Below, piece by piece: positions 19,893-45,314 of a DNA stretch of 64,000 nt (the stretch's first letter is position 1; the number at the start of each line of letters is the position of its first letter). Position numbers and translations under genes: made by a program. The notes under the pieces were generated by a model. The model saw only the letters and a list, made by a program, of their open reading frames with translations, ran no database searches and was not told the DNA's origin. Source of the stretch: a virus; the IMG/VR virus record IMGVR_UViG_3300042863_000390, positions 2,286-66,285 of that record; one strand, given 5' to 3'.

Positions 19893-22800
19893 ATGCCTAT
19901 ATATATTTATAACGGAACAGAATTTTCAGAAGAAGACGTAATTGCTAAGGCAAGAGAAAAAGATATGGATTTAGAATCCTATATTAATAAATTTGGTATT
20001 AAGAAGGTTGAAGATAAAATGCCGGGAAAGCCAAAACCTGTTGTAAAAAAGGATGCAGTTGCAACAGTAAAAAGTACGGCATCCAAATCGGCGGAACCTT
20101 CTTCGGCGTCACCTGTTAATCCATTTGGTAAACCTAAAACAATTGATCCGCTTGGATTAGAAAAACTTAAAAGTGCCCCTGCTCCAAAAGCAAAAAAAGA
20201 AACTGTGTTTAATCCAAAAAAATTTGCTAATGAGGTTAGCTCTCAAGCAAATGAAGGATTCTATACAAAAGGGGAAAGAAACATGCTGCTTAATAATACA
20301 AAGCAAAAAGAATTAGAGAAAAAAACTGTAGATAAGGTTTTTAATGATTTTGATAATTTAAATTACTCTAGTTTATCTCCTGAAAAAAAGCTTGAATTAG
20401 ACGATACAGCGGTAAAAATTTTAACAGCAAATCAAAAACCGGGAACACCGTATAAATTTACTACAAACGATATAGAGTTAAAATCGCAAGAGATTTTAGC
20501 TAAGGCATCGGACAAAAAGAAATCTATAGAGGGAGCGTCTTACTTGGATAGAGTCATAAGCGGTATTGCTAAAACTACTAATTATGTTGGAGAAAGCTTT
20601 GCTTCAATGCCAGAAACCATTTATAGGGTATTTGCACTGCCTCAAAATGCCGTTGCTGCTATTACGGGTAATAAAGAACTAGAAGCCACTCCTGAAAAAT
20701 TTAAAAAACAAACCGGGTTAAATAACCCTGTAATGGACTATTTTGTAGACGAACAAAAAAGAATACAAAAAGTTAATAATATATTTGACAATGCCAACTA
20801 TGACTCTCAAAGCATAACTGAGAATTTAAAAACCGGTAATTACTCAGATGCTTTTAAGCTTTTAGGGGTTGGTTTAGCGGAAAGCGCTCCAATAAGTATT
20901 GGTATGATGGCCGGAGGTGCAAATATGAGTATTGGTAAATTAGCTGCAGCGTCAACCGCTGTTATGGCTGGTCCTGAAATTAGGCAACAAAAGGAAGCAA
21001 ACCCTGATTTATTTGAAATAGAAAATGTAATGAATGGTTTTGGCATGGCTGGAGCTGAAAGTGTATTTTCCGCAATAGGCGAAGGTAGTATAGGTAAAGT
21101 ATATAAAGATATAATAAAAAAAGAGGGTCTTGAGAATGGAGCAAAAATATTTAAAGACGGCTTAATATCAACTTATCAAACAGCATTAAAAAAATATGGG
21201 GTTCCAGCAGCAATGTTAGGAGAAGGATTAGAAGAAGTTGCTACAACAGTTACACAAAATTTAATATCTAAAAAACCAGCTTTTGAGAATACAATGGACT
21301 CATTTATAGCAGGTGTTGGTGGTGGAGCTGTTTGGGGTTCTCCTATTACATTACAAAAGTCAATAGTAGGATTTAAAGACGGGCTAACCGTGCACAAAAT
21401 AAATACAGAATTAAAAACCGGTAACGCTTCCAATTTAAAAGAAGTATTTAATCCGAATACGCCTATTACCGAAACTCAAATAAAAATTGCCTCAATACCA
21501 AATTCTTATAAAATATTAACTAGCCAAATTGATAATGATATTGCGGCTGATAATATGACTGCTGAAGAAGGTGATAAAATAAAAATGGAATATGCAGCTA
21601 CTTATCACGCTGCGAATCAATTAAAGCCGTTAGAACTTCCTAATACTACTAGTGTTGAGGTTGCTAATTTATTAAAAAATAGAGATCAATTAACTAGAAT
21701 AATTAAAAATGTTAATGATCCAACTTTAACAACATTTCAATTAGATAAAGTAAAAGAAATAAACTCTAGAATAAGTGAATTAACAAGTGCTGTTGCTAAA
21801 GAAAAAATGGAAGGTACTATTAGTGCTGACATAGAAAGAACCGCGATTGCTTCTCAAGCATTAGAGGTGGAAGAAGAGATTGAATTACCTAATTTAAATA
21901 CAGCAAATGATGTAATAAATTATTTAAGTAAAAATACTGATCTTGATAAAGATACTATAAATGAAGCCGCAAATAAATACGGTGCATTTATTCCATTATC
22001 AAATGGTAAAGAAGCATTAATAATAAATAAGGAGGAAGCAGCAATGGATCAGGTAGTAACTACGGGTCAGCATGAGTTCTTACATAAACTTATATATAAA
22101 GCGGTAAAAGATAATGTTGATTTGCAAAAAAAAATAGGTGCGGATTTATATAATCACATTGAAAATTATATTGGTACTGAAACTCTAAATAATACTGAAT
22201 TTAAACAAAGATATGATACATATAAGCTTGATTTTGAAGATACAAAATTTGAATTAGAAGGTAAAATAACAAAAGCAAAAGAATATTTTAATAAAGGGCT
22301 AATATTACAAGATCAATACGATCAAACCCTTTCTCAGGCAAATTCACTTATAGCTAAAGCTGAGGGTAAGTATTTAGAAGAAACATTGCCTTTATTATCT
22401 GAAGCTTTAACTAAAGGAGATATTAAATATAATGAAACATTCTTTACTAAGATTGGTGATATATTACGTAGAATATTCCAAAAATATGGATTAAGTAAAG
22501 TAAAATTTAATACAGGTAAAGATGTATTTGATTTCGTAAGAGATTATAATAAGAGTTTTGAGAAAGGACAATTTACAAAAGCATTCAAGTCATTAGCAAA
22601 AGAAGGAGCTTATAAAGGATCTATTGCAAAAGGCAATGCTCCAGTTAGAACTGCTATTAAAACCGAAGTAAAGAAAAGTCAGGGATTATCACAAGTTGAA
22701 ACTTTAAAGAATCAACTAAAAGAAATACAAGATAATGAATTTGATTATGATCCTGATGATTTTGATCAACAAGTTGCTAACTTACAAGGTAAGATTAAAA

Positions 22801-25800
22801 AGGCAATTGAAAAGGAAAAAACCACTCCTGCTATTGAAACTAAGAAAGAAAAAGAAATCTCTGAAGAAGACGATGTAAAAGAAATTATAAAAACTGAAAG
22901 AGGTTCCGTATCTTCTGATAGAGTGCAACAAATATATAATGATAAAGGATTAAACGGAGCGGCTGAAATTATAAAACTATTTAAACCAATTACAAATAAG
23001 ATAGTTGACAAACGTAGAGATGCTCCAGGTTTTGACAAAGAATTATTAACTGATGAAATAGAAACAGGCGTTGGTGGTATTTTAGATTTAATAAAAAAAT
23101 ACAACCCAGAATCTGGTATTCCATTAGCTGCTTATATTAATAAGTATTTACCTGTTAGAGCAATCGCTACTTCAAGAAGGATACTAGATCAACAGTTTAA
23201 AAAAGATGTAACTGAAGAGAAAGGCTTAATGGCTGAAGAAACAGTTATAGAGACAAAAGAAAAGCCAAAATATAAGAATGTATTAGAATCAAAAGTTTTT
23301 GAGCCAGAGACGCTTAAAACAATCAATGATAAGATATTAACCGTTGTTAGAACTTTAAAATCAAAGATTGATGAGCCAATATCATTAAATAGGACAGTTA
23401 CGCCTATAATTGCTGAAATCAGAGATGAAATAGGTAAACTTGTTGATATTGATGTTAAAACAGCAATGGGTGGCAAAAAAGATGATCAACTTAAAAATTG
23501 GTTATTAAAGAATAAAAGATATATTCTTGAAAATATGACTACAACCTGGTTAATGGGTAAAGATGGTCAAGGAGGAATGCCTATTGCTATTCAAAAACAA
23601 ATTGATGGTAGATTTGTAAATTATCCTGAATGGGTTGGTAAAAAAATAGACAGAGAAAAAACTTCAACTGATAATGCGGGTAGAACTTCTGGGGCAGAAT
23701 TGGTTAGAAGATTGCCTAATGTAGTAAATAACATTTCTGATGCAGACTACCTTGCACAAGTTTTAGCCGCAGATGGGAATCCATTAAGAGGTAGGAAAGA
23801 GTCTTTAGCAAAAGCTATTGCTGAGGAATCATCGTTTGATATTATCAATGACGATTTAGCAAATGAAGGAGTTATATACGATGCTTTAGAAACAAATCAA
23901 AAAAGATTAGGTGTTGAGCAATTAAATAACATTGCTGTTGAAATAAATAAACAAATAGAAAGAGGTAATGTTAAATTTTCTGCAAGATTAATTAAAGGAT
24001 TTGAGATATCTAAAGATAAATTAATTAAAGATATAATAGAAGCCCCTACAGCAGAGGATGAAATAAATGTAATTAATAATTGGATAGCCAGTGATGGTAG
24101 ATCGCTGCGCACAATGGCCTCTAAAATAGGCCCTGGTGAAATATATAAATTAAGAATTAATAGAGGTTTATTTGAAAATATATTATTACCTATAATTAAG
24201 ACTGCGTCAAAATTTGAAGGAAAAATTGGAGAAGATTCTTATAAGTTAGAACCTGTTAAAGGGGGTGAATCGATATATTTTGGAGAAGAAAAAGTTCCAT
24301 TATGGGCAGATATTAATAGAATAAAAAGCAATTGGGAGTCTAGTGTTTCAATAATAGATGATGAAGCTTTAAAAGCAACTAATGATCTTATTAATATTGT
24401 AAAATATTTTAAAGACAATAACTATACTAAAGAAGATTTTGAATCTTATGTTGAATTACTTAAATTTGATCAAAGGGGATTATTCCGCAAAGTTTCTAAA
24501 GCGGGTCTTGGGGTACTAGGATTAACAAAAAAACAAGAACCTCGTTTAGAACATAATGCACCTGCTCAAACAATTGTTGATTATACTATAGATTTATTTG
24601 ACAATAAAATAACTGAACAGGAATTTAGAGCATTTATAGATGAATCAAAAGTAAATTTAGTACCTAAGGCACTGGAAGACATACTACCTGGTTATATTCA
24701 AGGTGAAAACAGAATGTATGATCCAAAAGCGGTTTCATTTATTAAAGACTTAATAGACAAAGGATATAAAGTTGTAGGTCTAGAAAAAGAATACGGAACA
24801 AAAGCAAACTTTAATGCTCTTGTTAAATTAGCAAAATCAGGTATTAATTCTAAAGAGTCCTTACAAAACATATATAATAATGATGCGGTAACAAAGTCTT
24901 TAATTTCATTTTCTAAACCGGCAAAAGGTATTTCTGTTTTTGATTTTGATGATACTGTTGGTATAACTAAAAGTAATGTGCTATACACAATGCCGGATGG
25001 GACAAAAGGAAAATTAAATGCTGAAGAGTTTGCAAAAGACGGTGCAAGACTATTGGAAGAAGGAGCTCAATTTGATTTTTCTGAATTTAGTAAGGTTACT
25101 AATGGTAAGCCAGGGCCTATGGTCGAAAAAATGAAGAAAATGATTGGCAAGTTTGGCCCAGATAATTTCTTTATACTTACTGCAAGACCTGCGAATTCAG
25201 CTGGTCCTATTCATGGATTTTTATCTTCAATAGGCATAGACATCCCATTAGAAAATATAACTGGATTAGGAAATAGCACAGCTCAAGCAAAAGCTGATTG
25301 GATGATAGCGAAAGCAACGGAAGGTTATAATGATTTTTACTTCGCTGATGATGCAATTCAAAATGTAACTGCCGTTAAAGATGCACTAAATGTTCTTGAC
25401 GTTAAGTCAAAAATTCAACAAGCAAAAATTAAGTTTAGTAAAACTATATCTCCAGAATTCAATAAGATAATTGAAGAGAATACTGGCATGGCAGACTACA
25501 AAGTATTCTCAGATATTGTTGCAAGAAGAAGAGGAGCTGACAAAAACAAATTTGATTTCTATGTTCCACCATCCGCCGCTGATTTTGAATTATTATTATA
25601 TAAATTTATAGGTAAAGGAAAACGCGGAGAAGAACAACAAAAATTCTTTTCAGATGCTTTATTAAAACCTTATGCAAATGGTAATGATTTAATGGATGCA
25701 GCAAGACAATCGATTAAGAAAGATTACAAAGCATTGACAGATCAATTCCCTGATATTAAAAACAAAATTGAGAAGTTAACGCCAGATGGGGACTTTACAT

Positions 25801-35177: not shown

Positions 35178-35193
35178 TTATTAAATTTAATTT

Positions 35194-35237
35194 GTTACAT
35201 ATATATTATCAATAAACAATCGTGTTTAGATTGTAAG
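35194..35237 (-). promoter_or_regulatory. Class-I 44-bp promoter-like motif, copy 1
   Basis: TACA-N8-ACGA-N8-TGATAATA-N4-TGTA on minus strand, upstream of primase-helicase. Confidence 0.7.
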
Positions 35238-35302
35238 AGCTCACTATTATAGATAATTAAACCCCAACTTGTGGGGCTTAACTATTCTATAAATTTATAA
35301 TA

Positions 35303-35617
35303 TTAAAATGGTAGATCATCTTCTACTACTGCGGCCACTCTTTGTTGCGGGGCAGACTGCCCATCAGTTCTGGGTGCTGCAGCAACATTACTGCCATTCG
35401 TCCATACCACTTTAACATTTCCAAGATATGTTTTAGCTGCTTTAGATTCACGTTCTTCTTTTGATTGTTCTACTTGTATTGGTCCTTGATTTCCAAATTG
35501 ATCTACTTCATCATTCAATGTAATTGTAATGGGAAGGTACTTTCCTTTAGCCCCGTCAATTATTTTGTGTTTTGGAATTGCATTAAGATTAATGCTCGCT
35601 TTAATTATACTTGCCAT
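35303..35617 (-). CDS. Putative single-stranded DNA-binding protein
   Basis: Small beta protein with acidic DDLPF C-terminal tail. Confidence 0.7.
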   Translation of the reverse strand: MASIIKASINLNAIPKHKIIDGAKGKYLPITITLNDEVDQFGNQGPIQVEQSKEERESKAAKTYLGNVKVVWTNGSNVAAAPRTDGQSAPQQRVAAVVEDDLPF

Positions 35618-35621
35618 TTTT

Positions 35622-35981
35622 TTATAGTTTTAATTGATTATTATTAGTTAAATAGTTTACTGCTTTTAATACCCCCTCGAGATTATCACCTAAAAATCCT
35701 ATACCAGAATTACAAGACATACATAGTATTCCTCTTATCTTATTTGTTTCATGGCAATGATCAATATATGTTGATCTCTTATCAAGTATTTCTTTACCGC
35801 AACAATGGCAATTAGTACTATCCATTAATGATTGGGCTTGATCTAATGTTATTTTATAATTTCTTGCCCTGGAATATAAACACTCGCAAGTTTTACATCT
35901 TGATTTTAATCTACCCGTATCTGTTCTGTTATAGAATTCTGTTAATGGTAATTCTAATTTGCAATAGGTGCATTTTTTCAT
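35622..35981 (-). CDS. Endonuclease VII-family HNH nuclease
   Basis: CxxC pairs, IDHCH...RGILC..CN.GIG. Confidence 0.85.
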   Translation of the reverse strand: MKKCTYCKLELPLTEFYNRTDTGRLKSRCKTCECLYSRARNYKITLDQAQSLMDSTNCHCCGKEILDKRSTYIDHCHETNKIRGILCMSCNSGIGFLGDNLEGVLKAVNYLTNNNQLKL

Positions 35982-35982
35982 G

Positions 35983-36714
35983 TTATAATGTACGTGTTAA
36001 TAGGTGCTGTTGAGGGTCAAAGTCCTCGGTCTTGTAAAATAACTCGTATGCTTCGGCAGCTCTTTTGACTTTGTCTTCGCCTGCTTGTAAGAACTTGTCG
36101 GAGCAATCAAATATACCAATTTGATTTGTGCCTTTATCTATTGCAATGAAAATAAGATCATATCCGAATAGATTTTTGTAAATGTATGCTTGACTATCAT
36201 AATTATATTTTCGTGCTGAATATGCAAAGTCTGCTATGTTAGAAGTTGTTTTAAGATCTATGATAAGGCCTTCATCGTGGTTAACAATATCTGCTTTACC
36301 TTTCCACATCACGTTAAATAATTCTGTAATACCAGGCTTTTCATATTCAACATTGAAACCTCGTATTAGATCTTTACAAATGTTATTAGCTAACATTGTA
36401 TCCTTCATTAGTTCGATCTTGTCTGCTTCATGTTGCAGCAAACAGATTTCACCGCCAGATAATTCTTTATATACATTAGTATTCCTGGTTGTTGCTTTAA
36501 TAATCTTGTACTTATCTAACTTATCAGGCTCCAAGATTGCTGTATGAAAATAACCACCAATAACAAAGTTTGGATTCGGAGGCTGAGGTTCATACAACAA
36601 TAAAGGATTAGTAAGCAATGCAGATATGTTTGAATTACTTAAGAAATTTCTGCCGAATTGGCCGTAATATTCTTGATCATCTTTTAACTTCTCTAAGATT
36701 TCTTCTTTAGTCAT
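35983..36714 (-). CDS. PD-(D/E)xK exonuclease (RecE/DUF3799-like)
   Basis: G.YFHTAILEP, KGKAD, IIDLKTT, Y..QAY.Y. Confidence 0.8.
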   Translation of the reverse strand: MTKEEILEKLKDDQEYYGQFGRNFLSNSNISALLTNPLLLYEPQPPNPNFVIGGYFHTAILEPDKLDKYKIIKATTRNTNVYKELSGGEICLLQHEADKIELMKDTMLANNICKDLIRGFNVEYEKPGITELFNVMWKGKADIVNHDEGLIIDLKTTSNIADFAYSARKYNYDSQAYIYKNLFGYDLIFIAIDKGTNQIGIFDCSDKFLQAGEDKVKRAAEAYELFYKTEDFDPQQHLLTRTL

Positions 36715-36715
36715 A

Positions 36716-37276
36716 TTATAATGATTGTAATGCTACAGCAACATTGTCAGCTAGTTCATACTTCTTTTTGATTGTATCAATCGATCCTCCTTTAGCAATA
36801 AAGTCTTTAGCTTTTTCAAACGCAGGATCTGTTAATGTTAATAAAGCTTTTTTAGTTTCAGGTTCTGCTTTGCCATGATCAGGATCTTGAGTGTCATCAA
36901 TTAAGAATAGATTACCTAATGCATACTTCTTACCATAACTTGATGCTGACCCAAACTTCTGAGGCATTTGCATACCTTTTTGATCAAGATCAACACCAAC
37001 GATTGCTACTGCATGTAAAGCACCATTCCCATCGGAAATTGTTGCAGTGGACTTTAAGATGGGGAAACCTTGACTAGATTCTATTAGATCCTCTGTTACC
37101 GTAACTGATACACCAAGCCGTAATAAGAATGGTTTAGTTGCTTCAAGAATATCTTCAGCTGATCTAAAGTTATACTTACCAAATGAATTGAATCTAGACT
37201 TCTTAGATTTAAATTCTGTTTGAATTACCGCTAACTTATCATTAAGCGTTAATCCTGTTTCTTTTTTTTCTGCCAT
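36716..37276 (-). CDS. ERF-family single-strand annealing protein
   Basis: FGKYNFRSAEDI, Q..GSASSYGKKYAL..LF.IDD..DPD. Confidence 0.85.
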   Translation of the reverse strand: MAEKKETGLTLNDKLAVIQTEFKSKKSRFNSFGKYNFRSAEDILEATKPFLLRLGVSVTVTEDLIESSQGFPILKSTATISDGNGALHAVAIVGVDLDQKGMQMPQKFGSASSYGKKYALGNLFLIDDTQDPDHGKAEPETKKALLTLTDPAFEKAKDFIAKGGSIDTIKKKYELADNVAVALQSL

Positions 37277-37301
37277 ATATTTGATTTAATTGTTTAGTTT
37301 C

Positions 37302-37320
37302 TATATTAATATAATTACGT
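37302..37320 (-). promoter_or_regulatory. Candidate class-II promoter ACGTAAT-N8-TATA
   Basis: Shared motif upstream of the ERF operon. Confidence 0.45.
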
Positions 37321-37367
37321 ATTTTGTAACATATTTAGTCAATTTATGCTACAAATTTTGATTTAAC

Positions 37368-38132
37368 TTATAGGTAATCAAGGACTTGCGAGGAATCAAC
37401 ATTATCAATTAACTTCTTAATTGCTTGCTTTTTTATCTCTGAAATTCTAACATAAGCGCTTGCTCCTTCAATTCCTAAATAGTCTGCAATATCATTTGCT
37501 GAATGTTTATCACAGTCTAAACCATAACTTAATCTTAATACTTCAAACTCACGATCATCTAAATGTTTCTTCAATAAACTTGTTAGATATAAATTCATTA
37601 AACCTACATTGTAAACTTCTGATTGATCAGGAATTTGATACAACATATTATCTTCATCATCATCGTTGATTTGTTCATCAATGCTTAAGAATATTGAATT
37701 GAAAAACATTGCAACTAATGTATGATCCTTGCTGTTATCTTTTCTAATTTCATTAAGCTTATGCTCTGGAATCTTAATTGATCCTCTATTAATATCAATA
37801 GCTCTTCTAATGGATCCTTTAATTCTTTTAGATAAGAATGATTTCAATGTGCTTTCTTGATGATCGCTGTCTCTGATTGTATCCCATTCAATTTTGTCAA
37901 TTGCCTGCACTAAACCGATAGATCCATATTGAATAAGATCTGTAATGTCTAATACACCACATGCCTGCGTAGTTGTAGAAAACTTCTTTGCAATGTTCTC
38001 AACTAATGGTAAAAACCTAGCAATCAACTTATCCCTGGGGTATGATTTAAAGTCAATTGATTCGCTATCTTTATTAGTTTGTTTAATATCTTCTTTATAC
38101 CTGATATAATTTGGTATGTTGTAACTTTTCAT
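37368..38132 (-). CDS. Phage sigma70-family RNA polymerase sigma factor
   Basis: Region 2 LPLVENIAKKF...DLIQYGSIGLVQAIDK...RIKGSIRRAI; region 4 LDDREFEVLRLSYGL...IADYLG. Confidence 0.88.
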   Translation of the reverse strand: MKSYNIPNYIRYKEDIKQTNKDSESIDFKSYPRDKLIARFLPLVENIAKKFSTTTQACGVLDITDLIQYGSIGLVQAIDKIEWDTIRDSDHQESTLKSFLSKRIKGSIRRAIDINRGSIKIPEHKLNEIRKDNSKDHTLVAMFFNSIFLSIDEQINDDDEDNMLYQIPDQSEVYNVGLMNLYLTSLLKKHLDDREFEVLRLSYGLDCDKHSANDIADYLGIEGASAYVRISEIKKQAIKKLIDNVDSSQVLDYL

Positions 38133-38136
38133 AATC

Positions 38137-38442
38137 TTATTTGTTTTTAAATTGTTCTAAATATTTACCTTCAAAATGAGCCATTCTATCATCAGAATAT
38201 TGACCAACATTTTTAATTAAGAACCAAGCAAAGTTTAGCATATCTTCCTCACTATAACTTCTTTCTTGTTGCCATTTAATTATTTCTTTACAAACAGCAA
38301 TCATTAACATTCCATTTGGAGTAGTAGTTTCAAATGATTTTGTATCTGCTCTTGTTTCATAACCAAAATTTGGTGCTAAATTCTCATAAGTATTATGAAA
38401 TAAAATAGCTAATTGAACTTCTTCAAGTGTTTCTTGTTTCAT
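38137..38442 (-). CDS. MKQETLEE/KWQQERSYSEE-type small protein, copy 2
   Basis: Shares three identical blocks with the adjacent gene. Confidence 0.7.
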   Translation of the reverse strand: MKQETLEEVQLAILFHNTYENLAPNFGYETRADTKSFETTTPNGMLMIAVCKEIIKWQQERSYSEEDMLNFAWFLIKNVGQYSDDRMAHFEGKYLEQFKNK

Positions 38443-38446
38443 AATC

Positions 38447-38701
38447 TTATTTGTTTTTAAATTGTTCTAACAGTTCTTTAATAACATATTCGCTTTCATT
38501 ATCTAAATTATTAAATTCAGATAACCATTGTCCAAATTTTATAACTTCTTCCTCACTATAACTTCTTTCTTGTTGCCATTTAGTACCAAATTTTACTGCT
38601 GATATAATATCGTGTCTGCAATATTCATTTTTATTCGTTGCAGGACATCTATATATTTCTGAATATTGCTCTATAGCTTCTTCAAGTGTTTCTTGTTTCA
38701 T
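38447..38701 (-). CDS. MKQETLEE/KWQQERSYSEE-type small protein, copy 1
   Basis: Shares three identical blocks with the adjacent gene. Confidence 0.7.
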   Translation of the reverse strand: MKQETLEEAIEQYSEIYRCPATNKNEYCRHDIISAVKFGTKWQQERSYSEEEVIKFGQWLSEFNNLDNESEYVIKELLEQFKNK

Positions 38702-38898
38702 ATCTTATTTGTTTTTATATTGTTTTTCCACTCTATCCAAAATCCTATAGCTACTAATATATTCAGCCAAAAGGAGGTAATAATTTCATAAATATCTTCA
38801 TATATATTAAATGTTAAATGTACATGACCTACAACCCAGAAGGGTATTGTTAAGTTACTAGCTATCCAAGTTATAGTGAATATTACAAAACGTTTCAT
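38698..38898 (-). CDS. Small membrane protein
   Basis: 66 aa, two hydrophobic segments. Confidence 0.6.
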   Translation of the reverse strand: MKRFVIFTITWIASNLTIPFWVVGHVHLTFNIYEDIYEIITSFWLNILVAIGFWIEWKNNIKTNKI

Positions 38899-39515
38899 AA
38901 TGATCGATTTAATAATTCTTTTTCTTTTTTAAGTTCATTGCTCATGTTTCTATGTATTGTTCGTGACGTACAACCAAAATGATCAGCAAGGTTTTTAATT
39001 GTAATTTTTTTGCCGAGGTCATTCGTGTATAGCATTGCTTCGTAAATGTCAGATTCACTAACTTTCTTAGTTTTGCCAATCATCTTTCCTACTATAGATA
39101 ACTTCTCAGTGACAGTTAACTTACAGTTATCCTTAAATATAATCTTACGAGTTTTATTATAAGGAGGTTCATCAAGATCTTTTAAAGATACTTCGTACAT
39201 CATGCTTTGTAATAGCTGTTCACTTACATTGAACGTTACAAAACCATTATTCTTTTCACATATAAACCTAGCGATAGCTTCAAATGCATTCTGATCCATA
39301 TCAGGATTTAAATACCATATAACATATAAATGCCACTTTAAAGACTTATATGTTGGAATTTTAGCTTTACTCCTGAATAATTCATAACATTCGTTTGTAC
39401 CTGATTCATAGAAGTTACCCCATTCAAACTCTTCACTTGGTTTATCATTAACTGGTCCACGCCTATATATCACTCGTTTTTTATTTAAATATTCTAGGTT
39501 TCTACTATGCGACAT
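38895..39515 (-). CDS. HTH DNA-binding protein, possible replication initiator (PriCT/HTH-like)
   Basis: C-terminal HTH ITIKNLADHFGCTSRTIHR; start codon lies inside a conserved palindrome. Confidence 0.55.
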   Translation of the reverse strand: MSHSRNLEYLNKKRVIYRRGPVNDKPSEEFEWGNFYESGTNECYELFRSKAKIPTYKSLKWHLYVIWYLNPDMDQNAFEAIARFICEKNNGFVTFNVSEQLLQSMMYEVSLKDLDEPPYNKTRKIIFKDNCKLTVTEKLSIVGKMIGKTKKVSESDIYEAMLYTNDLGKKITIKNLADHFGCTSRTIHRNMSNELKKEKELLNRSL

Positions 39516-39554
39516 TAGCTTGCTATTTTATTATATTAATTAGCTAACGTCACA
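39508..39554 (-). promoter_or_regulatory. Quasi-palindromic site, copy C
   Basis: TGTGACGTTAG-N24-GCTAATGTCGCA on minus strand. Confidence 0.75.
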
Positions 39555-39574
39555 TTTATTCACATTAGCATTTT

Positions 39575-39772
39575 TTATTTATTATCTTGTTCTATTAACT
39601 GGAATATATAACTCCACACTTTAACTTCACGTTTATGTGATTCAATCATATCTTTTACTGTATCGCTGCTTATGCCCCAATTGACATACTTATCCATATC
39701 TTCACGTAATAATACCTGAAGTTTAGATCCAATTTTGTTACTCGCTAATTCATTTAATTCTTCTCTTGTCAT
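39575..39772 (-). CDS. Hypothetical protein
   Basis: 65-aa ORF. Confidence 0.55.
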   Translation of the reverse strand: MTREELNELASNKIGSKLQVLLREDMDKYVNWGISSDTVKDMIESHKREVKVWSYIFQLIEQDNK

Positions 39773-40248
39773 AATATTGCAGGTCTTGTTATTATAGATT
39801 CGTTTGCATTTTTTACATTAACTTTTTCAGCTTCATAATAATTCCAGTATGCTTCAACACTATTGCCAGGAACTTTGTATTGATCGGGCATGCATTGTGG
39901 CATTGGAGTTAATTCAGATTTAGTTACATTAGTTGGTACTTTACTTAGTACGCCACTACATTTTAATATTGTTAAATGTTTTTTGCCGTAACGTCTAGTA
40001 TATTCTTCACCAAGCGCCATCATATGATCATATAACCATTTGTAATTAGACTTTGATTCACGTGCCCATATGGCAGAAGGATGGTTTTTGTGAGTAACTT
40101 TATAAGGTACGTCAGCATCAGGACCGTCAGATATTACATGAGCGGTACATAATAATTGTGCGGATTCTAAGATCATCTTTACTACATGCTTGTTATACAT
40201 GTACTTAGCGGCTTTTGTAGGATCTGTAGACAGATAAAATATATTCAT
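39769..40248 (-). CDS. Pyrimidine-dimer DNA glycosylase (DenV/endonuclease V-like)
   Basis: MNIFYL..DP, KHVVKMILESAQLLCTAH, HKNHPSAIW, EY..RYGK.H. Confidence 0.8.
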   Translation of the reverse strand: MNIFYLSTDPTKAAKYMYNKHVVKMILESAQLLCTAHVISDGPDADVPYKVTHKNHPSAIWARESKSNYKWLYDHMMALGEEYTRRYGKKHLTILKCSGVLSKVPTNVTKSELTPMPQCMPDQYKVPGNSVEAYWNYYEAEKVNVKNANESIITRPAIL

Positions 40249-40263
40249 AATTTGATTTGATTG

Positions 40264-40307
40264 GTTACATTAATATTATCATTCTTTAATCGTGTTTAGA
40301 CTGTAAG
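40264..40307 (-). promoter_or_regulatory. Class-I 44-bp promoter-like motif, copy 2
   Basis: Same consensus and spacing; upstream of DenV-like/HTH/sigma operon. Confidence 0.7.
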
Positions 40308-40431
40308 CAGCTAATCTTTTATAATGCTTATGTAAACGGTTGTCTCTACAATAAGAGCATGCTCCATTGTTTCTGCATGTTTTATCAAACACTCTTGATT
40401 TTCTGTACGCTTGTTTTACTGTTCTGCTCAT
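40279..40431 (-). CDS. Small basic Cys-rich protein (50 aa, not in ORF track)
   Basis: MSRTVKQAYRKSRVFDKTCRNNGACSYCRDNRLHKHYKRLAAYSLNTIKE, translated by hand. Confidence 0.6.
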   Translation of the reverse strand: MSRTVKQAYRKSRVFDKTCRNNGACSYCRDNRLHKHYKRLAAYSLNTIKE

Positions 40432-40445
40432 AATCTTTAATTTAG

Positions 40446-40511
40446 TAGTCAGGCAAGGACTCGAACCTCCTCCGCTTTATCAGTGCGGTGCTTCCATTCA
40501 GCTACCTGACT
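40446..40511 (-). tRNA. Truncated tRNA-like element (Ile-GAT-like loop)
   Basis: Acceptor AGTCAGG/CCTGACT+A, T-loop GGTTCGAGTCC, loop CTGATAA; only 66 nt, variable loop almost absent. Confidence 0.55.
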
Positions 40512-40578
40512 TATAGTTAATTACCACCACTAAGCGTGTAACTGGGTGGATTACTGAACTCACGCCTTATTAACTATA
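40512..40578 (-). ncRNA. Predicted pseudoknotted small RNA (RNA-C)
   Basis: Outer stem TATAGTTAAT/ATTAACTATA, inner stem AGGCGTG/CACGCTT, loop CCACC complementary to downstream GGTGG. Confidence 0.5.
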
Positions 40579-40584
40579 TATATT

Positions 40585-40675
40585 TGGAACTAAAAGGGGA
40601 ATCGAACCCCAAAACCCGTCGGTTGTGACAATGCCCGGAGACTGAAACAGATCCATTTAGCCCAGCACTTAGTTC
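40585..40675 (-). ncRNA. tRNA-like element with non-canonical central part
   Basis: Acceptor GAACTAA/TTAGTTC, T-arm GGGG-TTCGATT-CCCC, 3' end TTCCA; no canonical anticodon arm. Confidence 0.5.
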
Positions 40676-40676
40676 T

Positions 40677-40774
40677 TGTTAATCCGAGGACCGGTTATTT
40701 TCTTTATCCCATATTTCGGTTGCAACCAGCTAGCTAAGCTTGGTATGACTCCACGCAACCCCGAGTGATTAACA
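40677..40774 (-). ncRNA. Predicted multi-stem small RNA (RNA-B)
   Basis: Closing stem TGTTAATC..CGGGG/CCTCG-GATTAACA; inner GCTGGTT/AACCGGT and TGG/CCA hairpins. Confidence 0.45.
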
Positions 40775-40782
40775 TTTTGAAC

Positions 40783-40873
40783 AGTTCTTATTTAACGAAC
40801 TCACTGCTCCCTGAGTCGAACACGATTGCCAGCTGCTCGAGCACTACATGCATGAACAACCGTGTATAGCAAC
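40783..40873 (-). ncRNA. Predicted structured small RNA (RNA-A)
   Basis: ACACGGTTG/CAATCGTGT stem, ACTCA/TGAGT hairpin whose loop GAGCA can pair with TGCTC, AGTTC/GAACT hairpin. Confidence 0.45.
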
Positions 40874-41100
40874 TACAGTTTCTTAAATCTGTATTGAGCT
40901 AATACGTATTTGTTTAAGAATTTACCTTTAGAAGGGGCTTCTCTTAAACCATTCATTACATGGTTAGGTACGTTTAAATATTCGTACGCTTTACCGCTAA
41001 TGAATAGAACAATTAATTTTTCAACACTTGGATAGTAAGCGACTTCAGAAATTGCGCTACTGTCAACCGTTAGTGATTCCACTAAGTTTACATTTGTCAT
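40873..41100 (-). CDS. KTSC domain protein
   Basis: VDSSAISEVAY...LIVLF.SG..YEY..VP........APSKGKF.N. Confidence 0.85.
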   Translation of the reverse strand: MTNVNLVESLTVDSSAISEVAYYPSVEKLIVLFISGKAYEYLNVPNHVMNGLREAPSKGKFLNKYVLAQYRFKKL

Positions 41101-41110
41101 AGTTATTATA

Positions 41111-41443
41111 TTAGATAGTTAAAAAATATTCTTCATCAAATTTATCTTTGAAACCTACATGCTTGATACCGTATACTAATATATCAAATTGATCAGAGCT
41201 AATAGGTATGCATTCTTGTTCAAATACAGAACATAAATTTTCTACAGTAGCCACAACATTACTTAATAATTTATAATTAGTTTCAAGTTCAGCAACAATG
41301 GTAGGCTCAATCAAATCATGATAGCTACCGCTGCTTTCTGTTAATTGTAATAATGTATAACCACGTAGGTTTTTTAGATAATCCATTACTTCTTGGGCTG
41401 AATAAGGATTGTTAAGCAGCCCGATATTGATTGTAAAAGTCAT
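41111..41443 (-). CDS. Hypothetical early protein
   Basis: 110-aa ORF; INIGL, EPT.V, QECI motifs. Confidence 0.6.
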   Translation of the reverse strand: MTFTINIGLLNNPYSAQEVMDYLKNLRGYTLLQLTESSGSYHDLIEPTIVAELETNYKLLSNVVATVENLCSVFEQECIPISSDQFDILVYGIKHVGFKDKFDEEYFLTI

Positions 41444-41455
41444 ATTATTTATTTA

Positions 41456-41707
41456 TTATTGGTTATATATATCGTAATAATCACTCATTGTATTTATTAA
41501 TTCTCTTCCGTATGCAGTATGAAAACCATAACTATGTGTATAATTATTTATTGGTGCATTTTCTAATAACAAATACAACATATCAAATTCATTCTGATCA
41601 AACTTTTTACTCGCTCTTGTTATAGCTTTAGCCAAGGCACTACAACTGTGTCGAGGCGTTTGATTAAGGGTATTTTCTATATAATCTTTTACTTGCTTAG
41701 CCTTCAT
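41456..41707 (-). CDS. Hypothetical early protein
   Basis: 83-aa ORF. Confidence 0.6.
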   Translation of the reverse strand: MKAKQVKDYIENTLNQTPRHSCSALAKAITRASKKFDQNEFDMLYLLLENAPINNYTHSYGFHTAYGRELINTMSDYYDIYNQ

Positions 41708-42062
41708 TTTCTTCAGGATTAAGTTTAAAATAGTCAGTTAATTCGCTAACGAATGATCTTGTAAATTGGTATGCATCGAATGAAGTATTTAACTCAAGAG
41801 TAAAACTATTGCCATATGATCCGCATAATTCAGGCTCACTCATTATAAATTCTTCAAAGTCAAAGTTATCTAATAAATCTTCAACAGAATCAGTAATATA
41901 TTTAGGCGTCAATCCAGAAGGTTTTAATTCTGATACTTCCATTAATACATTAGTACGTAGTGCACTTAATAAGTTAACAACATCATCTTTAGAAAAAATA
42001 CTTGGGTATGCATCTACAGTTTTTGTAATTTCCTGATCGAACAGGTTGTTTATATTTTCCAT
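41697..42062 (-). CDS. Hypothetical early protein
   Basis: Acidic 121-aa ORF directly after promoter copy 3. Confidence 0.6.
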   Translation of the reverse strand: MENINNLFDQEITKTVDAYPSIFSKDDVVNLLSALRTNVLMEVSELKPSGLTPKYITDSVEDLLDNFDFEEFIMSEPELCGSYGNSFTLELNTSFDAYQFTRSFVSELTDYFKLNPEENEG

Positions 42063-42079
42063 TTTATTATATTTTATTG

Positions 42080-42123
42080 GTTACATTTATATTATCATTT
42101 ATTGATCGTATTCAGACTGTAAG
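42080..42123 (-). promoter_or_regulatory. Class-I 44-bp promoter-like motif, copy 3
   Basis: Same consensus and spacing. Confidence 0.7.
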
Positions 42124-42320
42124 ATTCCATTTTCTTCAACAACTTCGCAGAATAAGGTGTATAGCAAACTTTCTATTTGCTGCAATCTATGTAATTGATG
42201 TACGGTTAAAAGCGATCTTTCTATTCTAAAATCCGTATTTAGGTTTTCTTCAATTGTTAATGTTCCTTCAAAGACTGCTAGCTTAATTAAGTCTAGTTCT
42301 TTATCGCTTAGTACTCTCAT
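42099..42320 (-). CDS. Hypothetical early protein
   Basis: 73-aa ORF. Confidence 0.5.
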   Translation of the reverse strand: MRVLSDKELDLIKLAVFEGTLTIEENLNTDFRIERSLLTVHQLHRLQQIESLLYTLFCEVVEENGILQSEYDQ

Positions 42321-42468
42321 ATATTTTTATTTCTAATGCATTGTTAAACACTCGATCGTATGCTTCTGCCATTTTATTATTATCGGCATAGTGTACAGTC
42401 TTTACTATTTCGCGCATCCACACTTCAAATGCTAATGCTTCTTGATGAGCTAATCTTTCTTTTGTCAT
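42301..42468 (-). CDS. Hypothetical early protein (55 aa, not in ORF track)
   Basis: MTKERLAHQEALAFEVWMREIVK... fills the gap in the operon. Confidence 0.5.
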   Translation of the reverse strand: MTKERLAHQEALAFEVWMREIVKTVHYADNNKMAEAYDRVFNNALEIKIYESTKR

Positions 42469-42470
42469 AA

Positions 42471-42713
42471 TTAATCTGTTAAAACTATTCTTAATGATCC
42501 ATCTTCGTTTTCGCCGGTAAAATTACCAGTTGATTCATTGTATACTAATACTATATCGAAAGCTTTAGCTACTTTAACGGCTGCAATACCAATCTCGCCT
42601 TGTAATGTTAATTCGCCGCGTCTAGGATAATACTGTATACTATAGAATACTTCAAACTCTACTTGCTCATTTACATATCTTAATTTTTCTAATAACCACA
42701 TTCTTCTATCCAT
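42471..42713 (-). CDS. Hypothetical early protein
   Basis: 80-aa ORF after promoter copy 4. Confidence 0.6.
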   Translation of the reverse strand: MDRRMWLLEKLRYVNEQVEFEVFYSIQYYPRRGELTLQGEIGIAAVKVAKAFDIVLVYNESTGNFTGENEDGSLRIVLTD

Positions 42714-42732
42714 CTTGTTATATTTTTTATTT

Positions 42733-42776
42733 GTTACATATATATTATCAATTGTTAATCGTATTTTGATTGTAGG
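42733..42776 (-). promoter_or_regulatory. Class-I 44-bp promoter-like motif, copy 4
   Basis: Same consensus and spacing. Confidence 0.7.
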
Positions 42777-42995
42777 CTACTCAATTACCTTCATAAAATC
42801 ACCATTTTTATTATATAATATGGTTAATTCAAACTTATGGTCTAGGTGACATATCATTTCGTTGATGTTAGCAAATGATAAGGCCATTGAGAATTGATCA
42901 GGAGCGGCGGTTAAACCTTCCGCTTGAGCAAGCGTGTATAGCAAACCGACGTCGAGTTGGTTACTATTACGCATTTTAATATACTCTGCTTTCAT
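42777..42995 (-). CDS. Hypothetical early protein
   Basis: 72-aa ORF. Confidence 0.6.
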   Translation of the reverse strand: MKAEYIKMRNSNQLDVGLLYTLAQAEGLTAAPDQFSMALSFANINEMICHLDHKFELTILYNKNGDFMKVIE

Positions 42996-43186
42996 TATTT
43001 TTGTTTTAAGGTTAATGCTTTAATCTTTTCGATTGTTTCAGATACAACCATGTCTACATAATCCGCAGTCATCAAAGCATTTTTACCTTGTGCTTCAACT
43101 TCTTTAATATCTTTCTTCCATTCATTCCTAATTGCATTCAATCCTTCGATTACTAAATAACTTTCAAATCCGTTTAATTTTTTCAT
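42995..43186 (-). CDS. Hypothetical early protein
   Basis: 63-aa ORF. Confidence 0.6.
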   Translation of the reverse strand: MKKLNGFESYLVIEGLNAIRNEWKKDIKEVEAQGKNALMTADYVDMVVSETIEKIKALTLKQK

Positions 43187-43187
43187 A

Positions 43188-43436
43188 CTAATATTTATCT
43201 TTAATTTCTGTTAATGTTAAGTGATAGTGATTCCAATATCCGCTTCTACTGTGTGCTTTTGCTTTTGCACCAAAGGATGATTTCATTTTAGTCTTGATTT
43301 GTTTATAGTCATTACTATTAAAACTTTTACACAAGCCATCAATATTCACCGCATTTATACGGTTCGCTCTATTACGTGCTTTCTTTTCTTCAAGATATTG
43401 ACACGCTTCTTTCATATTGTTTGCTATTGTTATCAT
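43188..43436 (-). CDS. Hypothetical early protein
   Basis: 82-aa basic ORF. Confidence 0.6.
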   Translation of the reverse strand: MITIANNMKEACQYLEEKKARNRANRINAVNIDGLCKSFNSNDYKQIKTKMKSSFGAKAKAHSRSGYWNHYHLTLTEIKDKY

Positions 43437-43437
43437 A

Positions 43438-43620
43438 TTATTTTATTAAAGTTAAACCTAATTCATTTGCCACATAATTCACATGCTTTGTAGTTGTTCT
43501 TGACCACCAACCCAATACTTTAAGGGTATCGCCATCTCGTCTTGCAACGATTGTAGAGTAACTCCATACGTCATTACCAACCATTCTTAAATTGTCTTTG
43601 TATCTATTGAACTTTCTCAT
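43438..43620 (-). CDS. Hypothetical early protein
   Basis: 60 aa, SYSTIVA...WSRTTTKHVN motif. Confidence 0.6.
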   Translation of the reverse strand: MRKFNRYKDNLRMVGNDVWSYSTIVARRDGDTLKVLGWWSRTTTKHVNYVANELGLTLIK

Positions 43621-43621
43621 A

Positions 43622-43804
43622 TTACTTTTTGATTATATAAGTTAAACCTTTAAAATTAAACCACTCACTTGTGCCGTCGGATTCTTTATTAGCATCGTAG
43701 ATAAAACCAAAACTTGGGGGTAGATCGCCGATTAAGTAAGGTGTGTATAGCAAACCGTTTAATAAGATTTGATTGTACTTTAGGAATTTAATTGAATTTG
43801 TCAT
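43622..43804 (-). CDS. Hypothetical early protein
   Basis: 60-aa ORF after promoter copy 5. Confidence 0.6.
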   Translation of the reverse strand: MTNSIKFLKYNQILLNGLLYTPYLIGDLPPSFGFIYDANKESDGTSEWFNFKGLTYIIKK

Positions 43805-43819
43805 AGTTAATTTGTTTTA

Positions 43820-43863
43820 GTTACATTTATATTATCAATTTTGAATCGTATTTATTTTGTAAA
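43820..43863 (-). promoter_or_regulatory. Class-I 44-bp promoter-like motif, copy 5
   Basis: Same consensus and spacing. Confidence 0.7.
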
Positions 43864-43870
43864 TACTTTG

Positions 43871-43942
43871 TAGTTAGGGTAGGAATCGAACCTACATTGC
43901 GGGCGCCTGATCGGCCTGAGTTTACCATTACTCCTCCTAACT
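43871..43942 (-). tRNA. tRNA-like element with defective anticodon arm
   Basis: Acceptor AGTTAGG/CCTAACT+A, D-arm GAGT-AATGGTAA-ACTC, T-arm GTAGG-TTCGATT-CCTAC; positions 27-43 do not form a canonical stem-loop. Confidence 0.6.
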
Positions 43943-43949
43943 CCTATTA

Positions 43950-44177
43950 TTAATCTTTGTACTTAACATCCGCCATGAATCTTTCAATTATACCGGCTTC
44001 AAAAGCTTCTTGTTCTTTATAGTATTTTGCACGTACTATTCTATCTAATAACCATTCAACAATCACTTCATAATCCGTGTGATGTTTAGTCATACCGTTT
44101 TCTATAATCGCTTTATAATATGTGCGCTCAGGAAAGTACGGGTTTTTATACTCTATAATTTCATAATCTCCTATCAT
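43950..44177 (-). CDS. Hypothetical early protein
   Basis: 75-aa ORF. Confidence 0.55.
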   Translation of the reverse strand: MIGDYEIIEYKNPYFPERTYYKAIIENGMTKHHTDYEVIVEWLLDRIVRAKYYKEQEAFEAGIIERFMADVKYKD

Positions 44178-44179
44178 AA

Positions 44180-44347
44180 TTAATCGTTATATATTTCAAA
44201 TTCAACATCATCAAAGTCGTTAGCGTCCAACACTATTTCTTCACCACAATACATTTCTTCCGCTAATAATCTTGCATCGACTTCATCATCGGCTTCAACT
44301 TCAATTATCTTACTTAAATACTCGGTTATTTTTACTTGATATTTCAT
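44180..44347 (-). CDS. DpnD/PcfM-like small acidic protein (55 aa, not in ORF track)
   Basis: MKYQVKITEYLSKIIEVEADDEVDARLLAEEMYCGEEIVLDANDFDDVEF. Confidence 0.65.
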   Translation of the reverse strand: MKYQVKITEYLSKIIEVEADDEVDARLLAEEMYCGEEIVLDANDFDDVEFEIYND

Positions 44348-44363
44348 ACTTTACTTTTTAATA

Positions 44364-44480
44364 TTAATCTTCATTTTCTCCATCCCAATCGGTAAACTCG
44401 CAATGTTCTAAACAATCACCACACAACTCATCATATATATGGTGTCTACTCGCGCCACAACAATCACTATATTCTTCCAT
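44364..44480 (-). CDS. Small zinc-finger protein (38 aa, not in ORF track)
   Basis: SDCCGA...CGDCLEHC. Confidence 0.6.
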   Translation of the reverse strand: MEEYSDCCGASRHHIYDELCGDCLEHCEFTDWDGENED

Positions 44481-44484
44481 ACTT

Positions 44485-44784
44485 TTATTTATTTAAATTA
44501 AACAATCTTTCACACTTTCTATTACAGTACTCAAAGTGAGCCCATATCGCCGCATTAATTTTACCAACTTCGTCGTTTCTCGCATCTAAATACGGTTCAA
44601 TCGAGTGATAAAAGTCGGTTAACTCTTCGTCAATATAATTAAAATCTCGTTTAAACATATCAAGTTCATCACCTTGCATGTAATTTAACCCAATTATATC
44701 TTCATCTTCTTTAATGATTAAAATATATCTATCATCGCCATCACACCACACTATTTCTCTACTTTCTACTACTTTATAATTCAT
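44485..44784 (-). CDS. Hypothetical early protein
   Basis: 99-aa ORF. Confidence 0.6.
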   Translation of the reverse strand: MNYKVVESREIVWCDGDDRYILIIKEDEDIIGLNYMQGDELDMFKRDFNYIDEELTDFYHSIEPYLDARNDEVGKINAAIWAHFEYCNRKCERLFNLNK

Positions 44785-44808
44785 ATTGTATTTTTTTACT
44801 TATTAATA

Positions 44809-44907
44809 TTAGTTTCTTAGGGCCATAGAGGCGTATTTCGCTTGAATTAAGAACTCTTTTTTTACTTTTAATAATACCACTCTAAAGGCACTTGAATAAC
44901 GTCTCAT
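44809..44907 (-). CDS. Micro-ORF (32 aa)
   Basis: MRRYSSAFRVVLLKVKKEFLIQAKYASMALRN directly after promoter copy 6. Confidence 0.4.
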   Translation of the reverse strand: MRRYSSAFRVVLLKVKKEFLIQAKYASMALRN

Positions 44908-44931
44908 ATTTACTTGTTTTAGTTTGTTTTT

Positions 44932-44975
44932 GTTACACTTATATTATCATTTCACAATCGTATTTTTATTGTAAA
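44932..44975 (-). promoter_or_regulatory. Class-I 44-bp promoter-like motif, copy 6
   Basis: Same consensus and spacing. Confidence 0.7.
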
Positions 44976-45247: not shown

Positions 45248-45314
45248 GGGTTTTTAGGTGGATGCTATACGCGTTGCTATACACTTTGTGTAAGGTTCCG
45301 ATGGAACACTTTGT

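Follow-up and report, generated by a model that had tools for sequence, protein, structure and literature searches.

We analyzed a stretch of 64,000 nucleotides of viral DNA (hereafter the window; bases 2286-66285 of IMG/VR record IMGVR_UViG_3300042863_000390, a 66,285-bp genome that has direct terminal repeats and is rated complete) and found that a giant open reading frame (ORF) encoding 2585 amino acids (aa) very probably contains, as an internal cassette, the fold of domain 2 of the sigma-70 family, as judged from a predicted structure. The module is likely to be a true, but very remote, homolog of sigma domain 2. We tentatively suggest that this cassette is delivered into the host cell within a polyvalent, probably ejected protein and would dock on RNA polymerase (RNAP), capturing or blocking the host core enzyme, a reading that we consider plausible although short of probable. 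A sequence-only reading of this DNA had noted by eye a resemblance to sigma70 region 2 inside the 2585-aa protein; the resemblance goes beyond chance at the level of fold and of learned features, and AlphaFold modeling of the region around aa 1000-1350 and comparison of the model with solved structures gave a structural match to sigma region 2. The peptide on which that reading was based is real and lies inside the module (Table 1), although the range given for it, 22957-23180, is a few bases too wide, begins out of frame, and yields stop codons when translated as it stands.

An AlphaFold2 (AF2) model of aa 985-1365, built on an alignment of 33 diverse homologous segments (alignment A1), had a mean predicted local distance difference test score (pLDDT) of 79.9; model residues 1-5 and 117-140 form linkers of low confidence (pLDDT <50 for the latter). 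When this model was compared with 48,161 Protein Data Bank (PDB) chains using VIA-align, which is independent of Foldseek, each of the best 14 rows was a sigma factor or a chain from an RNAP initiation complex (Z 6.8-8.5), aligned at model residues ~20-120, which correspond to aa ~1004-1104. Ten of these 14 titles name the sigma; rows 4, 8, 11, and 13 leave the chain unnamed, and we take them to be sigma or gp55. Among the 50 rows listed, 23 name a sigma factor and eight more are initiation-complex chains whose identity we infer; overall, the rows for sigma domain 2 have Z 6.4-8.5 with 80-99 residues aligned. They include SigB (8x6g_H; Z 8.5, root-mean-square deviation (rmsd) 2.6 Å over 86 aa), sigma32 (8hkc_E; Z 8.2), ShbA (Z 7.6), 7d7d_F (Z 7.5, rmsd 2.7 Å over 90 aa), which we take to be T4 gp55, pro-sigmaK and sigma28 (both Z 7.3), and sigma70 itself (1sig_A; Z 6.8, rmsd 2.2 Å over 86 aa). 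The evidential weight lies in the exclusivity of the sigma rows rather than in Z, because low Z values may reflect a common helical arrangement. As an internal control, the neighboring conserved module (module 2) was taken through the same procedure and gave no sigma among its 50 listed rows, the best match being the C-terminal domain of DpnI (Z 5.7).

Other structure- and feature-based comparisons point to the same family. The Foldseek matches in the PDB included the N-terminal domain of SigE (8b3z_C; probability 0.94, template modeling score 0.65, rmsd 2.9 Å, 74 columns, 23% identity) and RpoS (5h6x_B; probability 0.89), with E-values of 1.6-2.2 for the PDB rows, and the top match in BFVD was a phage protein labeled 'Sigma70-ECF' (E 0.053, probability 0.99). 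For aa 1000-1110, 27 of 30 ESM Atlas matches fell in clusters bearing Sigma70_r2, with scores of 0.96-0.97 and 172-176 shared features; in calibration, scores of at least 0.95 were reached by about one in 100 shuffled proteins, and a third of shuffled proteins obtained ten concordant top matches. The matched clusters are viral and comprise proteins of ~120 aa, 14-63% of which carry Sigma70_r2.

Sequence comparisons gave fewer, fainter signals. With NCBIfam models, the commonest matches among 33 homologs were sigma factors: SigI in 5/33 (best E 6.9e-5), SigK in 4/33, and FliA and WhiG in one each. A profile of the family searched against PDB sequences reached SigE (8b3z_A) at E 0.12, which is not significant, in the same register as the alignment made by eye; in this weak hidden Markov model (HMM) alignment, D..I...G..G[IL] and F/Y-containing helices fall in the sigma register. 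A broader profile, made from 35 shorter family members, found only low-complexity matches among PDB sequences, for example Mediator 15, and phmmer with aa 975-1145 found only yeast SIR4 (E 0.087). Neither megablast nor tblastn (with the gene, aa 901-1350, and aa 1850-2585) gave a match among 50,697 phage records. Fold, learned features, and a few HMM matches speak for the domain assignment; standard profile statistics do not.

The giant protein belongs to a large family (1401 homologs at E ≤1e-3 among 8000 candidates scored, and 409 clusters at 50% identity) from common uncultured phages whose portal relatives infect Flavobacteriia. In the module, 46 of 111 positions (aa 1008-1105) are at least 90% conserved across 231 homologs, and the near-invariant positions include exposed polar and aromatic ones in the equivalents of regions 2.2-2.4. 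Among 262 family proteins, the canonical module was found in 240 and module 2 in 172; 150 have both and 22 apparently have module 2 only. For 21 of these 22, enough upstream sequence was available, and in 19 of the 21 the module HMM detected a diverged module at the corresponding position (E <1e-3). The diverged modules are of two types, A (P0148, P0188, and loci L098, L106, L108, L129, L130, and L138) and B (L134 and L156-L167), which keep the pattern F-[DN]-P-x-K...L..[FY]I...L..R. At least three versions of the cassette, strongly diverged from one another, thus occupy the same position of otherwise similar giant proteins. In the type A relatives (G039-G042), the cassette is 28% identical to that of the window (27/95) and the next module 74% identical (167/225), a contrast that would be seen if only the cassette had been swapped or had evolved very rapidly. 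We also collected 80 IMG/VR loci via the module's own PLAAYINK word; the module lies within a giant frame in 80/80. The 55 complete frames are 2189-3323 aa long and the other 25 run off a contig end, and no free-standing small version was found among the 80 loci.

The layout of the giant ORF is best explained as an N-terminal part in common with virion 'structural proteins', followed by a series of cassettes: an HExxH motif, the sigma-2-like module, module 2, a HAD-like motif set, and a conserved C-terminal region. As the sequence-only reading had stated, an HExxH motif (HEFLH) stands in the same chain as the sigma-like domain, and its residues H, E, and H are each kept in at least 90% of 34 aligned family members; searches of the whole protein gave no Pfam peptidase, MPTase, or LPD match in the HExxH region. 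The ESM Atlas features of aa 640-960 are nearest to clusters with the polyvalent families LPD23 (18-20% of members), LPD1, and ART-PolyVal, a lead with a best score of 0.94. The linker that follows the sigma-2-like module is predicted to be disordered, and D1105, E1108, A1114, and E1116 are at least 91% conserved within it. This near-invariant D-V-T-E...A-x-E (23205-23294) is unusual conservation for a mere spacer, and one possibility is that the linker (aa 1105-1134) serves as a processing or cleavage site. Module 2, folded alone (aa 1135-1365), gave an AF2 model with a pLDDT of 85.8; beyond DpnI, its VIA-align matches are scattered small DNA-binding domains at background level (Z 4-5), Foldseek found nothing at E ≤1e-3, and these fold searches of aa 1135-1365 did not find a sigma region 3 or 4 downstream of the sigma-2-like module. 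Further along, the motifs FDFDDT, ILTARP, and FADDA form what we take to be a HAD-phosphatase-like set, in a region without a Pfam match. Searched as a whole against PHROGs, the giant protein matched no family.

From gene position, distant homologs, and the precedent of polyvalent proteins, it is reasonable to suppose that the giant protein is packaged and is probably ejected together with the DNA. According to the ORF list and PHROGs, the giant gene is the last in a co-oriented terminase-portal-structural block, in line with the earlier reading of it as the last large gene of a podoviral tail module; upstream products match PHROGs for large terminase, portal, and several 'virion structural protein' families. 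The family HMM matches gp18 of Flavobacterium phage elemo (3694 aa, E 2.7e-20) and gp101 of Cellulophaga phage phi38:1 (1691 aa, E 7.2e-22), both of them encoded by giant genes in the equivalent slot and annotated 'structural protein'. Because the HMM match covers only the first ~800-900 positions, the N-terminal third is common to these proteins and the cassettes behind it differ. Plain phmmer sees no similarity between the giant protein and its counterparts in cultured relatives. Giant genes occupy the corresponding position in NC_055853.1, MW202828.1, and KC821614.1; the one in MW202828.1, of ~3859 aa, is annotated 'reticulocyte binding/rhoptry protein'. For phi38:1 (KC821614.1, locus L174), GenBank notes base 'structural protein' on similarity to 'phi18:1_gp91-gp101'. 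PMC11946311 describes phi18:1 as a 39.2-kb phage, and the GenBank reference to phi18:1_gp101 looks wrong and was not trusted. We found no particle proteomics for phi38:1 gp101, a name that occurs 0 times in the passages of PMC13288928.

The giant ORF is best read as a polyvalent protein. Such proteins, found in phages and conjugative elements and including the N4 virion RNAP, have been proposed to be packaged, delivered with the DNA, and self-processed (Iyer, Burroughs, Anand, de Souza, and Aravind, 2017; PMC5512222, main text). Like them, the protein described here is giant and multidomain, is encoded beside virion genes, and combines a conserved HExxH with several unrelated cassettes, and the Atlas lead to LPD23, LPD1, and ART-PolyVal points the same way. 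Unlike them, it has no match to any Pfam polyvalent family. The word 'sigma' is absent from the main text of PMC5512222.

In the model that we tentatively favor, the giant protein would be packaged and exit the capsid alongside the DNA. Once in the cell, the sigma-2-like cassette would dock on the beta' clamp helices of the host RNAP core, the site used by every sigma, and would either capture the polymerase at the entering DNA or keep the host sigma off. Docking could involve the whole chain or a piece released from it by cutting at the flexible linkers. We co-folded the module, with its own alignment, and residues 240-400 of Flavobacterium johnsoniae beta' (RPOC_FLAJ1), together with three controls. 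For the co-fold with RpoC, proposed earlier as a check, the score of 0.43, against 0.01 for the best control, is graded as weak support, with a beta' that is a stand-in and with solved sigma2/beta' complexes that may be remembered. In calibration, 58 of 80 solved complexes passed the mark, as did 2 of 110 mismatched pairs. Only seven of those 80 did so with a score of 0.60 or less, along with both passing mismatches. The runs agree in at least 48% of contacts, with a partner pLDDT of at least 65. Because sigma/beta' complexes are solved, the co-fold mainly restates the likeness to sigma.

A number of results weigh against a delivered docking cassette, or against its being a sigma domain at all. 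At a threshold of E ≤10, neither the whole protein nor aa 975-1145 or aa 901-1350 matched Pfam Sigma70_r2 (PF04542), and neither did the 33 homologous segments or four divergent full-length homologs. The NCBIfam search gave no sigma match for the window's own segment or for four other full-length homologs. With hhalign, the module scored E 0.17 against the phage's own sigma family and E 0.32 against ten bacterial sigmas plus the phage sigma; it was placed on sigma regions 2.1-2.4 in both comparisons, and when the full-length family was compared with the sigma alignment as a control, an equal E was obtained at an unrelated place. Since these scores are no better than the control, hhalign is no evidence either way. 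All Z values in the fold search fall under the tool's caution line for helical bundles, which at Z below ~8-13 may share only a common arrangement, and Foldseek found no match at E 1e-3 in the PDB or BFVD. The beta' chain in the co-fold is a stand-in chosen for a host class known only from portal relatives. On the side of delivery, the stretch in common with cultured phages excludes the sigma-like module, the 'structural protein' labels of the cultured homologs are annotations, and a single, weakly hydrophobic segment was all that was detected in the giant protein, such that a role in an ejectosome is not evident from its sequence.

Some of the same results would fit reuse of the sigma-2 fold outside RNAP, as a helical spacer or adaptor in the capsid or ejection channel, or as a binder of the phage DNA end, an alternative that we regard as rather unlikely but deserving of serious attention. 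Under this alternative, it would be no surprise that plain sequence profiles do not put the module in the sigma family, that the Z scores lie in a range common for helical bundles, or that the co-fold support is weak, and a part that has to fit the very conserved beta' clamp helices would not usually differ so much (28% identity) among close relatives. However, the unbiased fold search was topped exclusively by sigma and initiation-complex chains, language-model features and some HMM matches name the sigma family, and the 46 near-invariant positions include exposed polar and aromatic residues in the equivalents of regions 2.2-2.4. Bona fide sigma factors, moreover, reach comparable divergence and still bind beta'.

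The sequence-only reading had gone further, and proposed a cascade in which a sigma-2-like domain, freed by the HExxH protease, programs the host core to read the 44-bp promoters first, the one upstream of the phage's stand-alone sigma gene included, after which that sigma takes over. We consider this improbable, even though several of its premises withstood analysis. As had been claimed, the phage appears to have no RNAP of its own: PF00623 is absent from the complete 66,285-bp genome, with the control detected in 14/14 genomes, and DxDGD is absent from the giant protein, whose only two D.D.D strings are both within low-complexity linkers. (PF00940 also had no match in the genome, but its control was detected nowhere, which makes that search uninformative.) The missing DxDGD and PF00623 rule out the giant protein as a disguised RNAP as well. 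The stand-alone gene was the sole match to PF04542 in a six-frame search of the genome, and such a gene is present in 15/16 relatives that are at least 90% complete. It does lie downstream of a candidate early promoter, with the nearest upstream motif copy at ~40267-40310 and four ORFs between. The description of the early promoters as not host-like also stands, insofar as the canonical Bacteroidota-type pattern TTTG-N16-21-TAnnTTTG, for a host inferred from portal relatives, is not enriched (seven matches versus 4.56 expected; 21 of 100 shuffles reached seven), and none of the seven precede early genes.

The 44-bp motif itself is well defined. In the transcribed orientation its conserved blocks are TTACArT, AyACGA, TGATAATATA, and TGTAAC, and in 13 of 17 relatives that are at least 90% complete it occurs on one strand only, with 0-1 matches for reversed-pattern controls. 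The cascade would gain from the sigma-2 fold and the weak co-fold support, and from the presence in the motif of TGATAATAT, which we take to be extended -10-like and in principle readable by a sigma-2-only factor; T4 gp55 is such a factor, and reads late promoters. The module, the stand-alone sigma, and the motif also occur together in the clade and are all absent from the outgroup podophages NC_055853.1 and MW202828.1. This three-way co-occurrence, however, rests on two outgroups and may be one evolutionary event. Likewise, co-variation of motif and module across the 80 IMG/VR loci is uninformative because these loci were found through PLAAYINK, and we used the type A phages as a swap test instead.

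In the type A phages G039 (100% complete), G040, and G041, no canonical module was detected at E ≤1, compared with 1e-71 and 1e-67 for G000 and G001. Despite their 28%-identical cassette, the type A relatives keep 12, 8, 2, and 1 copies of the motif (12/8/2 in G039/G040/G041), with the same four-block consensus, and their stand-alone sigma is 81-91% identical to that of the window. The positions equivalent to the residues with which sigma reads the -10 element differ between the two versions of the module (N-K-Y versus S-S-R in alignment A1). The motif thus follows the stand-alone sigma and not the module, which argues against the module as the reader of the motif. The type B carriers add nothing clear: they are genome fragments, 42-79% complete, their sigma has diverged further (59% identity in G045), and two of the records each have just a single, variant copy of the motif. 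Domain and motif co-occur in the clade and are both missing from the two outgroups, but the motif is kept when the module is swapped. In addition, no region 3 or 4 was found in aa 1135-1365, and conservation of the motif extends over 44 bp, with three upstream blocks that would be beyond the contact of a lone domain 2. The injected sigma domain of a two-sigma cascade is weakened on these grounds, namely the unchanged motif and stand-alone sigma and the lack of a detected region 3/4. The module alone is probably not the reader of the 44-bp promoters, which most likely belong to the stand-alone sigma. This sharpens a puzzle: the promoter upstream of the stand-alone sigma gene resembles the type that this sigma itself would read, which leaves the first transcription of the gene to be explained.

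A bolder reading would be that the sigma-2 cassette shipped in the particle clamps the beta' helices as a delivered, split specificity subunit, and starts the first transcription before any phage protein is made; this too strikes us as improbable. The adjacent module 2 may then act as the DNA-binding partner. If true, such a subunit would add a third means of bringing transcription start along to the two already known, injected polymerases and injected modifying enzymes, and the three diverged types of cassette would represent host-range or counter-defense variants.

Two further explanations are harder to sustain. That the resemblance is due to chance, or is an artifact of structure prediction on a helical segment, would accord with the non-significant Pfam, hhalign, and Foldseek statistics and with the concordant Atlas matches obtained by a third of shuffled proteins. 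Yet four kinds of evidence (the PDB profile, the fold search, the Atlas, and NCBIfam) name one family in one register, the control module gave nothing comparable, and Atlas scores as high as those obtained are reached by only ~1 in 100 shuffled proteins, such that we hold chance to be very unlikely. Least likely is action of the module in the producing cell, as a late-made, processed, gp55-like late factor or in the shut-off of earlier gene classes: the late, structural orientation of the gene, the disordered linkers predicted on its flanks, and the match to T4 gp55 (if 7d7d_F is that chain) would allow it, but a late factor that exists only as the third cassette of a 2189-3323-aa protein, in 55/55 complete frames, would be an odd design, no small stand-alone version was seen among the 80 loci, and the phage already has a complete sigma gene.

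Table 1. Coordinates of the giant ORF, its parts, and the stand-alone sigma and 44-bp motif in the window
Feature	Position	Strand	Basis and remarks
Giant ORF P0001, 2585 aa	19893..27650	+	ORF list, translation; candidate polyvalent virion/ejection protein
HExxH motif HEFLH, aa 727-731	22071..22085	+	motif position; candidate zincin-like peptidase site
Sigma-domain-2-like module, aa ~1004-1104, regions 1.2 to 2.4	22902..23204	+	structural alignment
Peptide of the sequence-only reading, aa 1025-1095, inside the module	22965-23177	+	translation
Low-confidence linker, aa 1105-1134, with conserved DVTEEKG...E motif	23205..23294	+	pLDDT <50 (model residues 117-140)
Conserved module 2, aa 1135-1365	23295..23987	+	AF2 model; fold without clear known relative
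HAD-phosphatase-like set FDFDDT, ILTARP, FADDA, aa 1683-1821	24939..25355	+	motif positions, conservation in family consensus
Stand-alone sigma-70-family gene, 254 aa	37368..38132	-	Pfam Sigma70_r2 E 5.9e-6, 26.4 bits (cut-off 24)
44-bp motif, eleven co-oriented copies	35181..46143	-	repeat families D1, D2; regex listing; consensus
44-bp motif, core starts (as + strand positions)	35197, 40267, 42083, 42736, 43823, 44935, 45084, 45207, 45590, 46019, 46090

The rest of the genome provides context for the giant gene. The arm opposite to the structural block encodes a class II-like ribonucleotide reductase, thymidylate synthase, a primase-helicase, an ERF recombinase, and the 254-aa sigma-70-family protein. 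Of 87 portal relatives, 86 are host-named, and for 86/86 the host belongs to Flavobacteriia: 68 infect Flavobacterium, 15 Cellulophaga, two Tenacibaculum, and one Maribacter. Going by these portal relatives, which are the only guide to host class, the clade would consist of abundant, uncultured podophages of Flavobacteriia. A search for the host through 185,579 species genomes returned only two small contigs of metagenome-assembled genomes (labeled Arcobacter and Parvibaculum), which are probably mis-binned and were set aside as giving no clue to the host.

Near the stand-alone sigma gene, identical 34-bp blocks span the start codon of the sigma gene itself and those of small early genes that follow one another (38127-38728; repeat families D5 and D12). 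An operator-like quasi-palindrome, GTGTGACATTAGC...GCTAACGTCGCAC with an AT-rich spacer, is present in three copies (39502-39556, 45314-45368, and 46565-46619; repeat family D8). Directly ahead of the first genes of the late (+) arm are three tandem ~40-bp repeats (AACCCCTT.CTTTATTATTTGT.AT...; 46424-46540), preceded by ~260 bp (46160-46420) that are GC-richer and mostly without a listed ORF of at least 80 aa on either strand; the region 46160-46540 may be a late promoter or an origin. Among the late genes, 48917-53176 encodes a 1419-aa protein that has no Pfam match and is presumably a fiber; in its gene, a ~270-bp unit that ends in GNVGIGT-like motifs is repeated at least seven times (repeat families D3 and D4). 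A GroEL-type chaperonin is encoded at 54940-56487 (Pfam Cpn60_TCP1, E 2e-55), and elemo and MW202828.1 also have GroEL/GroES genes. The adjacent late genes 60563-62512 and 62512-63999 look like paralogous tail or receptor-binding proteins, with several blocks in common that are 70-80% identical and lie ~1.75-1.8 kb apart (repeat families D6, D7, D9, D10, and D16).

Phages that take over transcription at entry are known to do so with a whole injected RNAP (N4-like, crAss-like, and phiKZ-like phages) or with an injected modifying enzyme (T4 Alt). If our reading is correct, a particle-borne copy of the part of sigma that grips the core would be a further variant of this strategy. The giant protein differs from the N4 virion RNAP and the virion RNAPs of crAss-like phages in that the ORF has no DxDGD and the genome no PF00623. 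Full-text literature searches and the main text of PMC5512222 gave no paper describing a particle-borne core-gripping domain of sigma. Even if the domain only blocks or tethers the polymerase, it provides a concrete, clonable test object of ~110 residues.

The closest comparison is with sigma-70 domain 2 itself (PF04542; SigB 8x6g_H, sigma32 8hkc_E, SigE 8b3z, RpoS 5h6x, and sigma70 1sig), which the module resembles in predicted fold. It differs in that it falls under every curated sequence threshold and is an internal cassette of a 2585-aa chain in which no region 3/4 was found, and in that reading of the 44-bp promoters by the module is not supported by the swap test. T4 gp55 is a small, free late sigma with only a sigma-2-like domain, which works together with gp33 and the sliding clamp. 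Both gp55 and the module are phage sigma-2-like units, gp55 lacking region 4 and the module having none found next to it in aa 1135-1365, and they match structurally at Z 7.5 (if 7d7d_F is gp55, as we assume); whereas gp55 is small and free, the module is always inside a giant protein of the structural block (80/80 loci). Free-standing phage sigmas, such as the phage's own 254-aa sigma and, in passages of PMC8948821, phiEco32 gp36 and the sigma of phage 7-11, are likewise phage-encoded specificity subunits for the host core. These, however, are the products of separate early or middle genes and have regions 2 and 4, while the module is a cassette that aligns with the phage's own sigma family at a non-significant hhalign E of 0.17. 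Finally, T4 Alt is a virion-packaged ADP-ribosyltransferase that is injected with the DNA and modifies host RNAP (PMC5512222, main text). The shared concept is that of a particle-borne protein that acts on host RNAP at entry, with the difference that Alt is an enzyme that modifies the alpha subunit, whereas the module described here would be a non-enzymatic domain that docks on beta'.

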